IMG/VR virus record: IMGVR_UViG_2713896902_000003
Coordinates: 1 to 31,452 of that record
DNA length: 31,452 nt
Direction: 5' to 3' (one strand)
DNA from: a virus
Taxonomy: Duplodnaviria; Heunggongvirae; Uroviricota; Caudoviricetes
Shown: positions 1-11,689 of the stretch, piece by piece
How positions within the stretch are numbered: position 1 is the first letter of the stretch
Layout: the number at the start of each line of letters is the position of its first letter
Made by a program: the position numbers and the translations under genes
The notes under the pieces: model-generated
What the model was told of the DNA's origin: nothing
The model's database searches: none
Seen by the model: only the letters and a program-made list of their open reading frames with translations

Positions 1-1131
1 TCAAACGACCAGTTTTTTCCACTCCTTACCGCGTGCGTCGTTGTAAATATCGGTCATTTTTTGATTTGAATGGCCCAGCAAAATTTTGGTATCAATTCCC
101 TGTTCTCTGAACAATCGCTCTGATAAAGATCTCTGCTCATGGAAAGAGGGTGGGGTACCATTGGCACACCAGTTGTAATCTACAGAATCCCGGGCCTTTT
201 TAAATGCAACAGTTAATGTTGCTGGTTTAACCATTCCGCCGCGCTTAGCTGTCCCTTTCGCGTGATGGTGGTGCAATAACCACGGACTAAGAATGCAATC
301 GCGACAGGATGACACCACATCATCCAGGGTAAGATTTAATTTATCGCAACGCAGAGCCAGAGGGATGGCAATCCGGGCTCCCGTTTTTTGCTGTTCAACA
401 TGAAGATAGCTATCCCGGATATCCGAAAACTGCATTTTGCAAATATCCGAAAGACGTTGCCCTGTCATCAGCGCAAGCAACATGCCACGCTGTAAAAAGT
501 AACCATCTTTTTCCGCTGCGTTATAAATCATCATCCACTCATCAAAGGTCAGTCGTTGCCTTGATACCCGTACCTGCGGTTTTTTTGCCGACTCTGCCGG
601 GTTAAAGCCTGACGGGACATCGCCCGTTTGCTGAGCTTCCCTGAAAACATCGATCAATACCTTCCTGAAAATTTGTCCCATTCTGTTATGCCCTCTTGCC
701 TTGTATTCTTCCAGCACCGATACAATATCTTTTACGGTTATGGCATCTAATTGCCTGGCTCCAAAACGTTCATCAAATACCCTGAGAGGGGCCGCTTTCT
801 GTTTCAGCGTGTTGAGTTTGATCTCTCCGTTTTCATATCTTTCCTGTTGAATTTTTCTGTAACTATTCAGAAAAATGGAAACGGTTGATGAACCGCCGGT
901 ATCACTAATAATTTTTTCCTGCAGACTGAACATTTGTTCCATTTGTTGTCTGGCAAGACGGCTGTTCGCTTCTGCTGCAATGGTTTCCGCCAGTTTCTGG
1001 TCAATACTACCGAGTCCGTGATTTTTGCCTGTGATGGGATGCCTGTACCGCCAGTAAATTTTGTTATTTCTTTTGTCAAAATACGGAGATAATCCCGGAA
1101 CATCAGTTTTATATTTTCGAGGGCGAGCCAT
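1..1131 (-). CDS. int: Tyrosine-type site-specific integrase (phage integrase), 376 aa
   Basis: Complete reverse-strand ORF from the track; C-terminal region has the His/Arg/Tyr-containing pattern typical of tyrosine recombinases (HHHAKGTAKRGG, LLGHSNQKMTDIYNDARG); located at the prophage end directly downstream of an excisionase-like gene. Confidence 0.9.
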   Translation of the reverse strand: MARPRKYKTDVPGLSPYFDKRNNKIYWRYRHPITGKNHGLGSIDQKLAETIAAEANSRLARQQMEQMFSLQEKIISDTGGSSTVSIFLNSYRKIQQERYENGEIKLNTLKQKAAPLRVFDERFGARQLDAITVKDIVSVLEEYKARGHNRMGQIFRKVLIDVFREAQQTGDVPSGFNPAESAKKPQVRVSRQRLTFDEWMMIYNAAEKDGYFLQRGMLLALMTGQRLSDICKMQFSDIRDSYLHVEQQKTGARIAIPLALRCDKLNLTLDDVVSSCRDCILSPWLLHHHHAKGTAKRGGMVKPATLTVAFKKARDSVDYNWCANGTPPSFHEQRSLSERLFREQGIDTKILLGHSNQKMTDIYNDARGKEWKKLVV

Positions 1132-1357
1132 CTTCCAGTATCCTCTTTAAAGCCGGGTGATCTGTGGCGATCACTTCAGGCTTGCCTACCATTCCGACAA
1201 AGCGAGCCCGTGGATCCACTCGCCAGTGTCTTCCAACTTTTTTGGGGAGAGGAAATATCATTCCGGCTTTAGCATATTTACTTAATGTACCTGGAGTAGG
1301 GACCGGTTCACTGAATTCCTCTTTTGCCCACTCAGTGAGCAGAATAAGTCTTGCCAT
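1109..1357 (-). CDS. xis: Excisionase (Xis-like), 82 aa
   Basis: Small basic ORF overlapping the integrase start by 23 nt; N-terminal LTEWA motif and IFPLP...GRHWR segment resemble lambda Xis-type winged-helix excisionases (resemblance by memory). Confidence 0.7.
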   Translation of the reverse strand: MARLILLTEWAKEEFSEPVPTPGTLSKYAKAGMIFPLPKKVGRHWRVDPRARFVGMVGKPEVIATDHPALKRILEDGSPSKI

Positions 1358-3832: not shown

Positions 3833-4036
3833 TTACGGCGCTGTTTTAAGTCCTGCCGGGACTTCGTTATTATCCATGCGAATAACTTTATCGACCGGAT
3901 AGCAGTTGCCGGGAATTTTTTGCTCTGCTGCGGCAGCCATGCATTCTTTCATTGAGCCGTAAATGTCAATAACCAGGTCAACAGGTTCGCCGGTATTAAG
4001 AAAAACTGTCAGAACGAGTGCAAATGCTGCATTCAT
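3833..4036 (-). CDS. Small hypothetical protein, 67 aa, hydrophobic N-terminus (possibly DUF1482-like)
   Basis: ORF from track; start overlaps the stop of the upstream gene by 4 nt (translational coupling); hydrophobic N-terminal stretch AFALVLTVFL. Family name is a guess. Confidence 0.5.
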   Translation of the reverse strand: MNAAFALVLTVFLNTGEPVDLVIDIYGSMKECMAAAAEQKIPGNCYPVDKVIRMDNNEVPAGLKTAP

Positions 4037-4221
4037 TGCCAGTATCCTTTTTGCATCAGACGTAAACGGGCCATCATTGAGGCAATGCGTATCTCATTTA
4101 ATGATTCAGGCCTGTGCTTTATCTGGTTAATGGCATCCTCAATAAAAGTTTTATCACCAGTGATAACGCCAATTTCAAAACGAGTTTCAGGCGTAGTGGA
4201 ATTGAGTAATAACATTTCCAT
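4033..4221 (-). CDS. Kil-like host cell-division inhibitor candidate, 62 aa
   Basis: Small ORF in the leftward early operon at the position of kil/kilR; segment FEIGVITGDKTFIEDAINQIK resembles the lambda Kil motif as I recall it. Low confidence, memory-based. Confidence 0.35.
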   Translation of the reverse strand: MEMLLLNSTTPETRFEIGVITGDKTFIEDAINQIKHRPESLNEIRIASMMARLRLMQKGYWQ

Positions 4222-4237
4222 TATCGCGTCCTCAACA

Positions 4238-4380
4238 GTGAATTTTGTGATGTGGTGCCTTCAGGTGACGTTAACCAGTTAACAATTAACGCCGGATACA
4301 GAGAATCCACCCGTAACACTGTTTTTAGCTTTAACTGTTCCGCGTGTGCTGAGCCGCATTCACCGCATCACAAAATTCAC
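4238..4380. repeat. 20-bp inverted repeat pair (GTGAATTTTGTGATGTGGTG at 4238-4257; CACCGCATCACAAAATTCAC at 4361-4380) flanking a 103-bp spacer
   Basis: Read directly: the arms are reverse complements with one mismatch; located immediately upstream (in the transcription direction) of the kil-like start codon. Confidence 0.7.
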
Positions 4381-4788
4381 TTTAAAAAGGGCGGACATCA
4401 GCCGGACTTCAAGAAAAAACTGATGCCGCCAAAGGCTCCGTCGTTAACACCCGACATGGATATGTTGTGGCGGGGTTGTCACTTAAGCGTATGGTCAGCC
4501 TGACAACCCGGTGTCCTCAACGGGGAAGGAGTAGCCCCGCCATACTTACCGCCGCGCCATTTCGCGGATTACCACAACCGGAAGCGCACGGTCGACGAAA
4601 ATTTAACGACAGACCATTTATGAACTAACAGCCTCGTCGTGCGCTTTCGCGTTATGCCCTGACTTTTCAGGGAAAATTAACCAGTGGTAAACTGGTGCTG
4701 CCGGATGCTCACCCGTGTCCGGCGCATGCCCTCCACCTCCCCCGTGGAGAAATCCTTAATTACCAACCTTAGCTTCGTTGGTTAGCTA

Positions 4789-5007
4789 TTAACGCGGGTA
4801 TGTAATCATTCTGGCGATACTTAATGCCACTGCTTTTTCCAGATTGGTAATATCTTTTTCCAGAGCAGACAGATTTTCGGCCTGCTTAGCCCTGGCTTCA
4901 TTGGCCCATTTTAGGTCTTGCGCTGCCTTAATTTTCTGGCACATCCACTCATAAAGTTCATCATCGGTATAGTCTGGCGCGATGATGACGGGTTCTGGTT
5001 TTTGCAT
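4789..5007 (-). CDS. Hypothetical protein, 72 aa; first gene of the leftward early (PL-like) operon
   Basis: ORF from track, about 190 nt downstream of the OL-like operators; no arginine-rich N-like motif, so not called an N antiterminator. Confidence 0.5.
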   Translation of the reverse strand: MQKPEPVIIAPDYTDDELYEWMCQKIKAAQDLKWANEARAKQAENLSALEKDITNLEKAVALSIARMITYPR

Positions 5008-5194: not shown

Positions 5195-5245
5195 AAAGAA
5201 TACCCACGGGTATCTAAAAAGTAAATACCCATGGGTAACTTTTTG
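5195..5245 (-). promoter_or_regulatory. OL-like operator pair (TACCCACGGGTA 5201-5212; TACCCATGGGTA 5226-5237) overlapping a candidate leftward PL promoter
   Basis: Two 12-bp palindromes of form TACCC-N2-GGGTA, 25 bp centre to centre, just downstream of the repressor gene 3' end; on the reverse strand TTACCC and TAGATA hexamers with a 16-nt spacer overlap them. Confidence 0.55.
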
Positions 5246-5278: not shown

Positions 5279-5698
5279 TTATGATGCGTTTTGTGTTTTC
5301 TTTTTACGGATTTCTTCGTAGATCATATTGTAATACTGTTTTTTCTCTTCAAGAGTTTTTAGTAAGTTATCCGCTTCACTTTCTGGCAGTTCGTCTAAGA
5401 GATCTAAAAAAATACGTTGTCGTGGCGTTAGAACCCTTGTTTCATAATTGGAGGCTGCGTTCGTTGATGATGAAACGATACCATCCATCCATCCTCGGGG
5501 TAACCCAAAGGACTCTTCGATAATCTCCACCATATCATCAGCGATCCGTTTTTTTCCTTTTTTCCCCTCTGGATACAACATTCTTGATACATAAGAAGGC
5601 TCGCGACCGATCTTTCTGGCCACGTTAACCGCTTTACCATCGCATTTCTCATCACGAATTTTGATGAGTTGCTGTCGTCTAAATTCATATTTGTCCAT
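5279..5698 (-). CDS. Prophage repressor, DicA/RacR-like (HTH, no LexA-type peptidase domain), 139 aa
   Basis: Divergent from a Cro-like gene with operator palindromes on both sides; N-terminal HTH-like segment (AVNVARKIGREPSYVSRML); C-terminal LTPRQRIFLDLLDELPESEADNLL resembles the DicA C-terminus as recalled; too short for an S24 autopeptidase domain. Confidence 0.65.
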   Translation of the reverse strand: MDKYEFRRQQLIKIRDEKCDGKAVNVARKIGREPSYVSRMLYPEGKKGKKRIADDMVEIIEESFGLPRGWMDGIVSSSTNAASNYETRVLTPRQRIFLDLLDELPESEADNLLKTLEEKKQYYNMIYEEIRKKKTQNAS

Positions 5699-11412: not shown

Positions 11413-11442
11413 TTGACCAGACACATTGTCCGGGGCTATATT
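11413..11442 (+). promoter_or_regulatory. Candidate late promoter PR' (TTGACC 11413-11418; TATATT 11437-11442)
   Basis: Near-consensus -35 and -10 hexamers with an 18-nt spacer, 5 nt after the Q stop codon and about 60 nt upstream of an intrinsic terminator. Confidence 0.5.
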
Positions 11443-11504
11443 CCTCACGCGCCAGCAAAATCTGGCGTCGGGATTAGGAACCCCGGATAGAGACCGCGAC
11501 AGAC

Positions 11505-11526
11505 ACACGCCGCGAGCGTGTTTTTT
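11505..11526 (+). terminator. Intrinsic terminator tR' candidate (ACACGC-CGCGA-GCGTGT plus T6)
   Basis: 6-bp GC-rich stem, 5-nt loop, followed by TTTTTTATT; read directly. Confidence 0.6.
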
Positions 11527-11689
11527 ATTGTCGTATGCACGCGCACATCTGAATTATGGTGGGGCGTATGGGGGAGCTGAAAAGCTCGCCGGTTGGTTTC
11601 CCGGTAGTTCCTAACCCTGTACGTCTCACCACCCGATGATTAGGAACCTGACGGTGGTGATGGTTTAGAAACCACCAGAGGGCGTCATT

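Follow-up and report, generated by a model that had tools for sequence, protein, structure and literature searches.

We analyzed positions 4222 to 4788 of IMG/VR virus record IMGVR_UViG_2713896902_000003, a Caudoviricetes sequence whose positions 1 to 31,452 form the window considered here (31,452 nucleotides in all). Very probably, this gap separates ydfC from dicB within the dicBF-type early-left operon of a lambdoid prophage related to Qin and Rac, and it works as minus-strand RNA. It represents a known kind of locus, a dicF/kilS-type small-RNA region followed by an RNase III-processed spacer, and is in that sense largely ordinary. Its small RNA is a distinct, previously undescribed allele that joins a KilS-type terminator to a novel seed, and a conspicuous inverted repeat closes a conserved, multi-helix RNA domain directly ahead of dicB. 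A preliminary description of the sequence had missed both the dicF/kilS-type locus and the inverted repeat as a putative RNase III stem. Coordinates throughout are those of the window, and the RNA elements of the gap are read on the minus strand.

Gene context and identity of the gap

The gap lies between a 62-aa open reading frame (ORF) that starts at 4221 and a 72-aa ORF that ends at 4789, so that it measures 567 bp; the preliminary description recognized it correctly but gave its length as 560 bp. The two neighbors, described there as a kil-like gene and a 72-aa first gene, are DicB and YdfC, respectively (Table 1), and these flanks identify the gap as the spacer between ydfC and dicB in an operon of the dicBF type. 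The order ydfC, gap, dicB, DUF1482 gene, exonuclease gene, xis, and int is common to the Qin dicBF operon of Escherichia coli K-12 and is likewise seen in an intact prophage of E. coli 14EC001. As previously noted, the transcribed strand carries no ORF of ≥60 aa; the sole minus-strand ORF within the gap is a 32-aa ORF with a GTG start, and the lack of coding sequence is explained if the gap functions as minus-strand RNA.

Aligned with K-12 Qin, the gap is a mosaic of well-conserved and dissimilar segments (Table 1). The RNA domains at 4237 to 4381 and 4464 to 4578 are ∼94% identical to their Qin counterparts, versus 55% for the adjoining DicB protein. Either these RNA modules are under tighter constraint than dicB, or they have been swapped by recombination. 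The best full-length match to the window allele in the closest complete E. coli genome is 87.4%, and an identical copy occurs in Logan assembly DRR017217.

The minus-strand structure prediction that the preliminary description had proposed gave strong signals, with z = -5.68 for the whole gap and z = -4.79 for a 151-nt unit containing the inverted repeat (-52.5 kcal/mol). The suggestion of a structured RNA was borne out in that the gap holds two covarying folded domains, namely, the spacer RNA closed by the inverted repeat and Module A, the 5′ domain of the small-RNA precursor.

The inverted repeat closes a covarying spacer RNA

The near-perfect inverted repeat with one mismatch and 103 bp enclosed, reported earlier, is real; its arms (4237 to 4257 and 4361 to 4381) are 21 nt each, and 20/21 positions (95%) are complementary. 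When the gap was shuffled 100 times, no repeat arm with one mismatch or none was longer than 14 nt; a 20/21 match has an analytic expectation of ∼2e-6. We collected 145 copies of the spacer unit from IMG/VR and GTDB genomes and ran covariation analysis on the 66 distinct copies, using a five-helix model that comprises P1 (the inverted repeat), P2, a 3-bp junction helix, P3, and P4. Across its 44 pairs, 97.8% of cells are paired (97% in helix P1), and compensatory change occurs at 10 pairs in 39 cells. None of 500 shuffles reached any of the five measures, and slid controls paired in merely 33 to 42% of cells.

The GTTAAC-TTAAC-TTAAC run pointed out in the preliminary description is present at 4267 to 4293 and forms helix P3, a covarying hairpin in which GGCGUUAA/UUAACGUC of Qin-type copies is replaced by GACUGUAA/UUGCAGUC in Rac-type copies. 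Helix P4 shows the same behavior, with CCUGG/CCAGG in most copies, CCGGG/CUCGG in phage P7, and CCGGG/CCCGG in Pseudescherichia; the window allele retains a P4 remnant because a 7-nt deletion took the 3′ strand. With a covariance model of the unit (R1), the minus strand scores 156.9 bits and the plus strand 40.3 bits, and the model finds a single copy in the window. Together with abundant G.U pairs, this strand preference indicates that the fold belongs to the dicB-sense RNA.

Between conserved flanks, the unit carries a hypervariable cassette of 22 to 43 nt that exists in many unrelated versions (L001 to L145 and the window). A UUAUGGGUG motif is common to many of them. At least four public contigs carry the window spacer allele as well. 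Directly 3′ of the domain, we observed unrelated first genes, including DicB alleles, KilR, TerB/TciA of phages P7/P1, an Ash-plus-Rha regulator, and three other small ORFs (L001, L003, L005, L006, L034, L081, L126, and L129). The copy upstream of tciA in phage P1 was detected by the covariance model alone (66.3 bits). In phage P7, a tRNA-Sec model match just under the gathering score (L006, 2304 to 2388; 46.6 versus 47 bits) lies ∼95 nt upstream of the domain and before terB, which is the position of the small-RNA terminator in lambdoid loci.

Several homologous copies match STnc100 (RF02076; gathering score, 47 bits). The Pseudescherichia copy (L129) reaches the gathering score at 47.8 bits, followed by the copies from phage P7 (43 bits), K-12 Qin (34.1 bits; E, ∼1e-5; same architecture), phage P1 (33.4 bits), and Rac (28 bits). 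Based on these matches, the spacer unit is apparently a diverged relative of STnc100. STnc100 is a prophage-associated family with copies downstream of stx2 (PMC12370729), and PasD1 and PasD2 are structurally related, prophage-encoded small RNAs (bioRxiv 10.64898/2026.05.13.724894). As a family, the spacer units share with these RNAs the inner part of helix P1 (GxxUGGUG/CACCAxxC), P2, the variable region, P3, and P4 (CCGGG-AGGCA-CCCGG); of these, P1, P2, and P3 are there in the window and covary across the family, whereas the 3′ strand of P4 is deleted in the window allele. The window allele differs in its 21-bp extended outer stem and in having no terminator of its own, the dicB Shine-Dalgarno sequence and ATG coming next. 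It also differs in context, forming the dicB 5′ leader in an early-left operon, whereas the described STnc100/PasD copies are late-region neighbors of Q, stx2, and a sialate esterase gene.

The small RNA and its precursor

The preliminary description had also considered a terminator region, and the gap does contain a small RNA with an intrinsic terminator. Its Rfam DicF match (RF00039; 4437..4389, minus strand) scores 31.9 bits (E = 4.5e-5) and covers model positions 8 to 52 only; the gathering score of 48 is not reached, whereas the K-12 DicF control scored 76.7 bits. The terminator hairpin appears in the single-sequence fold of the small RNA, and the terminator half shares 96% identity with the 3′ half of KilS from the K-12 Rac prophage (b4833). 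A plain promoter and terminator scan of the gap did not report this terminator because its loop is long. The sole match of that scan was a plus-strand promoter-like site, which we rejected as chance level because it falls within the variable cassette of the spacer RNA.

The small RNA shares with K-12 DicF its position in the ydfC-dicB operon, its precursor leader (Module A, 94%), the downstream spacer RNA (94.5%), and a terminator stem that begins UUUGGCGG-N-AUCAG and is followed by a U-tract. It differs in having an unrelated seed (32% identity) and a hairpin loop without CUCCG, the anti-Shine-Dalgarno motif of DicF. Thus, of the features that characterize DicF, it has the dicBF-operon location and the GC-rich hairpin with a U-tract 3′ end, and it lacks a gathering-level score and complementarity to the ftsZ ribosome-binding site. 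KilS is a 98-nt small RNA in the 5′ untranslated region of kilR in the Rac prophage, known from RIL-seq and Northern blotting, and its own promoter has been reported (PMC8175672). The window RNA resembles it in the terminator hairpin and in the STnc100-like spacer that comes next. In contrast, the match is confined to the 3′ 50 nt, the 5′ half and seed are unrelated, and the downstream gene is dicB; the Rac locus itself lies after sieB, upstream of kilR, and has no Module A.

A 99-nt query (4382 to 4480) that runs from the last part of Module A through seed and terminator was matched over at least 80% of its length in only 35 of 5,426 complete E. coli genomes. In public contigs with identical DicB, the same seed is joined to two different terminator loops, and seeds and terminator loops are mixed and matched among the 145 loci.

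For ftsZ, we compared windowed local duplexes with shuffle controls against the K-12 gene (-35..+20), which may not be the ftsZ of this prophage's host. Whole-length duplexfold had been discarded, as it returned long spurious duplexes for every RNA tested. The best local duplex of the window RNA was -15.6 kcal/mol, equaled or bettered by 92% of shuffles, whereas K-12 DicF formed a -22.9-kcal/mol duplex that covers the Shine-Dalgarno sequence. Given this weak duplex and the absence of CUCCG from the loop, ftsZ repression should not be assumed, and the duplex model suggests that the window small RNA probably does not repress ftsZ as DicF does.

Upstream of the seed, Module A has 61 matching phage records, among them the leader of the P1/P7 ban operon, and the GenBank label on the phage P1 copy is “dicF-like region.” Two compensatory pairs were found among six sequences. 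The seed and terminator that follow Module A differ in each of phage cdtI, Salmonella phage F1055, and P1/P7. Module A thus appears as a portable unit soon after early promoters, followed by a varying seed and an intrinsic terminator. This layout suggests a wider phage small-RNA family that keeps one processing domain and exchanges the seeds that follow it. Literature searches on the P1 “dicF-like region” and on leader structures of dicB or kilR found nothing specific.

A long irregular hairpin (4578 to 4651) precedes Module A and was predicted by alifold from 84 homologues; it is almost invariant, with 11 of 12 core pairs kept in ≥95% of the sequences. Farther upstream, the two small hairpins listed in the preliminary description exist, with coordinates a few bases off, their correct positions being 4731 to 4736/4744 to 4749 (CTCCAC/GTGGAG) and 4761 to 4767/4777 to 4783 (AACCAAC/GTTGGTT). 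They are conserved, and no compensatory change was found in them across 40 homologues. The CUCCACGGGGGAGG region (4729 to 4756, minus strand) can alternatively form a long-range pairing with CCUUCCCCGUUGAGG in Module A (4513 to 4530; -29.9 kcal/mol), and the minimum-energy fold of the whole gap adopts this pairing. The conserved noncoding block starts at ∼4765 regardless of the upstream gene, and a mosaic junction is visible among contigs with identical DicB.

Processing in K-12 and a model for the window allele

In K-12, the 190-nt DicF species requires RNase III and the 53-nt species requires RNase E (PMC10448788). The 5′ end of the 190-nt precursor aligns to ∼4584, inside the long hairpin, which by this alignment is homologous to the RNase III site forming that end in K-12. 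According to the summary in a later paper (PMC5069750), K-12 DicF has two 3′ ends, one at the terminator and the other, 19 nt beyond it, in a 72-nt species that RNase III generates from the full-length dicBF transcript. By our own coordinate mapping, the latter position lies in helix P1, 12 nt into its 5′ arm. Because the 72-nt 3′ end falls inside P1, the inverted repeat would be the stem that RNase III cuts in K-12, and with 20 of 21 positions paired, P1 fits the helix length of an RNase III substrate (∼20 bp, two turns). A weak rnc-dependent signal in the K-12 dicF-dicB spacer (1649470; 0 wild-type versus 26 rnc-mutant reads) comes from a table with many low-count entries (PMC5371410, Table S1).

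RNase III hairpins are familiar from phage early transcripts, such as the lambda N leader and the early intergenic sites of T7. Like these, the window stem is a ∼20-bp helix between cistrons, just 5′ of a ribosome-binding site, whose cleavage would uncouple upstream and downstream RNAs. It differs in closing a conserved multi-helix domain rather than being a simple hairpin.

In the model that we propose, transcription would start at the repressor-controlled promoter upstream of ydfC, and RNase III would cut at the long hairpin (4651 to 4578), as at its K-12 counterpart, to yield a precursor of ∼190 nt. Within it, Module A (4578 to 4464) would be followed by the seed (4463 to 4431) and terminator (4430 to 4384) that together make up the small RNA, with RNase E forming the 5′ end as for K-12 DicF. 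Transcripts that read through the terminator would carry the 145-nt STnc100-related RNA, with the inverted repeat as its 21-bp closing stem. A cut by RNase III within P1 would then produce a 3′-extended small RNA, corresponding to 72-nt DicF in K-12, and separate it from the dicB-ydfD-exonuclease-xis-int message, leaving dicB with a short leader in which the ribosome-binding site lies 4 nt past the stem.

The window allele itself displays the homology, the position, the terminator, and, by covariation, both folds. From the K-12 data, we infer that RNase III and RNase E cut this allele likewise and that the cuts tune DicB output. Several points weigh against this reading. The RNase cuts are known from K-12 alone and are carried over by homology, the statement on RNase III and the 72-nt form is a later paper's summary (PMC5069750), and the effect of cleavage on DicB synthesis is something that we infer for K-12 too. 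With the 3′ strand of P4 gone and a C.A mismatch present in P1, the window spacer copy could be partly degenerate, although public contigs carry this allele too. Neither window RNA attains its Rfam gathering score, and the window spacer allele has no match to STnc100 at E ≤ 10. Contig L150, which is identical to the window allele, likewise gave no STnc100 match at E ≤ 0.05.

Alternative explanations

Two alternatives grant that the gap is RNA and assign it another function. It is unlikely, in our estimate, that the STnc100-like domain, once excised by RNase III, acts in trans as a stable (Hfq-bound) small RNA with the cassette as its target-recognition element. A conserved scaffold with unrelated 22- to 43-nt cassettes at one position would suit such a role, and a cut in P1 would free the domain; moreover, both STnc100 and PasD are expressed, the latter being an Hfq-binding RNA with RIL-seq targets (bioRxiv 10.64898/2026.05.13.724894), and one STnc100 copy has been seen on a Northern blot (PMC5331693). 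However, this expression is that of the STnc100/PasD relatives, the domain in the window comes with neither a terminator nor a U-tail of its own, and structured RNAs often carry variable hairpins as neutral insertions. The domain also always lies directly 5′ of a ribosome-binding site, which fits a role in cis. The preliminary description had raised antitermination, for which we found no supporting evidence in the gap. We regard as highly improbable a specific version of this idea, in which Module A and the upstream leader form a cis-acting processive antiterminator, like put of phage HK022, that enables read-through of the terminator into dicB-exo-xis-int. An intrinsic terminator inside the operon does need read-through if xis and int are to be expressed, and Module A lies soon after early promoters (cdtI, F1055, and Pban of P1/P7), always just before a terminator. 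Nevertheless, HK022 is absent from the 61 phage records that match Module A, with no sequence match, and the ∼115 nt and several helices of Module A contrast with the two stems in ∼70 nt of put (PMC9378689). Module A is, in addition, already accounted for by K-12 data as part of a processed small-RNA precursor.

That the gap conceals a protein-coding gene, either a 26-codon upstream ORF inside the spacer RNA or plus-strand ORFs, is very unlikely. In its favor, 129 of 145 copies keep the upstream ORF open, GGUGA stands directly 5′ of a conserved AUG, and ribosome footprints are found on some STnc100 copies of enterohemorrhagic E. coli (PMC5331693). However, cassette lengths differ by amounts that are not multiples of 3, and two of the three frames meet TAA in P3, so an open upstream ORF is expected by chance once the AUG is conserved. 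A 2-nt insertion shifts its frame in contigs L149 and L152, and the Rfam STnc100 consensus does not contain the AUG. As for the plus strand, the NCBI annotation of 14EC001 includes a counterpart of the 53-aa ORF, a “hypothetical protein” of 54 aa encoded opposite Module A (L002, 5400 to 5564). This gene call is probably false. The plus-strand ORFs match no Pfam family and are broken in homologues by indels of 7, 2, and 1 to 4 nt, and K-12 RefSeq annotates no gene at the locus. The conserved hidden gene that the preliminary description had named as the finding that would speak against it did not emerge. Its other suggestion, that the inverted-repeat unit is a miniature inverted-repeat transposable element (MITE) or another small insertion, has next to no likelihood. 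The size is MITE-like, with 21-bp terminal inverted repeats around ∼100 bp, and the unit occurs in thousands of E. coli genomes at up to 10 places per genome. Yet the window has one copy, its flanks (TTTTTAA and GTTGAGG) show no target-site duplication, and every examined copy occupies one place, after a small-RNA terminator (or its counterpart in P7/P1) and before the first gene downstream. Phages P7 and P1 have other outer arms but retain the inner core, compensatory changes keep the ends paired, and the G.U pattern is strand specific.

Features of the window

Table 1. Coordinates of the gap elements, their flanking genes, candidate ORFs, and Module A copies at other loci
Feature	Position	Strand	Identity to K-12 Qin	Remarks
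Integrase gene	1-1131	-		Early-left operon of lambdoid prophage, left end of window
Excisionase gene	1109-1357	-		Early-left operon
Exonuclease gene, 777 aa	1422-3755	-		Exonuc_VIII and Rv2179c-like domains
DUF1482 protein gene	3833-4036	-		Early-left operon
dicB, 62 aa	4033-4221	-		ATG at 4221; Pfam DicB PF05358, 90.6 bits (cutoff, 27)
dicB Shine-Dalgarno sequence GAGGA	4229-4233	-		4 nt beyond P1 stem
STnc100-like structured spacer RNA, 145 nt (inverted-repeat unit)	4237-4381	-	94.5%	Closed by P1
P1	4361-4381 with 4237-4257	-		21 positions, 20 paired in window
P2	4342-4357	-		
Variable cassette	∼4297-4330	-		
P3	4267-4293	-		GTTAAC/TTAAC run; covarying hairpin
P4 remnant	4256-4265	-		3′ strand removed by 7-nt deletion
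Rho-independent terminator GGCGGCAUCAG...CUGAUGUCCGCC	4384-4430	-	62% (4430-4390)	C at 4389, then five U (4384-4388)
Small-RNA seed AUAUCCAUGUCGGGUGUUAACGACGGAGCCUUU	4431-4463	-	32%	Unlike DicF and KilS
Module A, multi-helix 5′ domain of small-RNA precursor, 115 nt	4464-4578	-	94%	Outer stem GUUGUGG/CCACAAC
Long irregular hairpin CGCGAAAGCGCACGACGA ... UCGUCGACCGUGCGCUUCCGG	4578-4651	-	88%	Inverted repeat I8
5′ leader of spacer	4652-4788	-	83%	Two small hairpins, 4731-4749 and 4761-4783
ydfC homologue, 72 aa	4789-5007	-		BLASTP, 93% identity to K-12 YdfC
Repressor-like gene	5279-5698			Beyond ydfC from the gap
Candidate 26-codon upstream ORF MRLSTRGTVKAKNSVTGGFSVSGVNC	4279-4359	-		AUG at 4359, inside spacer RNA; leaning negative
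Plus-strand ORF, 83 aa	4252-4503	+		
Plus-strand ORF, 53 aa	4467-4628	+		
Module A copy, phage P1	L005 2501-2654			
Module A copy, phage cdtI	L147 1501-1616			
Module A copy, Salmonella phage F1055	L148 1501-1619			

Outside the gap, the palindrome TACCCAYGGGTA occurs twice (AATACCCACGGGTATCT and AATACCCATGGGTAACT) at 5199 to 5240, between the repressor-like gene and ydfC, and these sites are probably operators of the early-left promoter. An Rfam match to mir-2041 at 5201 to 5237 was rejected as chance, since it reflects these operator-like palindromes, and a match to Phage_DGR was discarded (E = 1.9). At 11436 to 11636 on the plus strand, gathering-level Rfam matches to c4-a1b1 (47.8 bits), isrK (69.4 bits), and C4 antisense RNA (67 bits) mark what looks like a P1/P7-style immI antisense-RNA control module within the lambdoid prophage.

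Implications

As a locus studied since 1990 explains the gap, its presence opens no new question. The region looked empty because both RNAs fall below their Rfam gathering scores, and annotation by those scores leaves it blank. The window allele does show that the DicF/KilS family is a mosaic, in which seeds and terminator loops are exchanged behind a near-invariant processing domain. Accordingly, ftsZ may not be the target in every prophage that has “dicF.”

The link to the spacer RNA offers the STnc100 family a concrete role that can be tested in K-12, as an RNase III-processed leader of toxic genes. Tentatively, and with doubts that outweigh our confidence, we suggest that the spacer is an early-operon branch of STnc100/PasD, a portable structured leader placed ahead of dicB, kilR, tciA/terB of P1/P7, and the Ash/Rha regulator, and that the Module A layout represents a seed-swapping family. 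If this is true, RNase III cleavage of the stem would finish the upstream small RNA and either gate the translation of toxic genes or free a second regulatory RNA.

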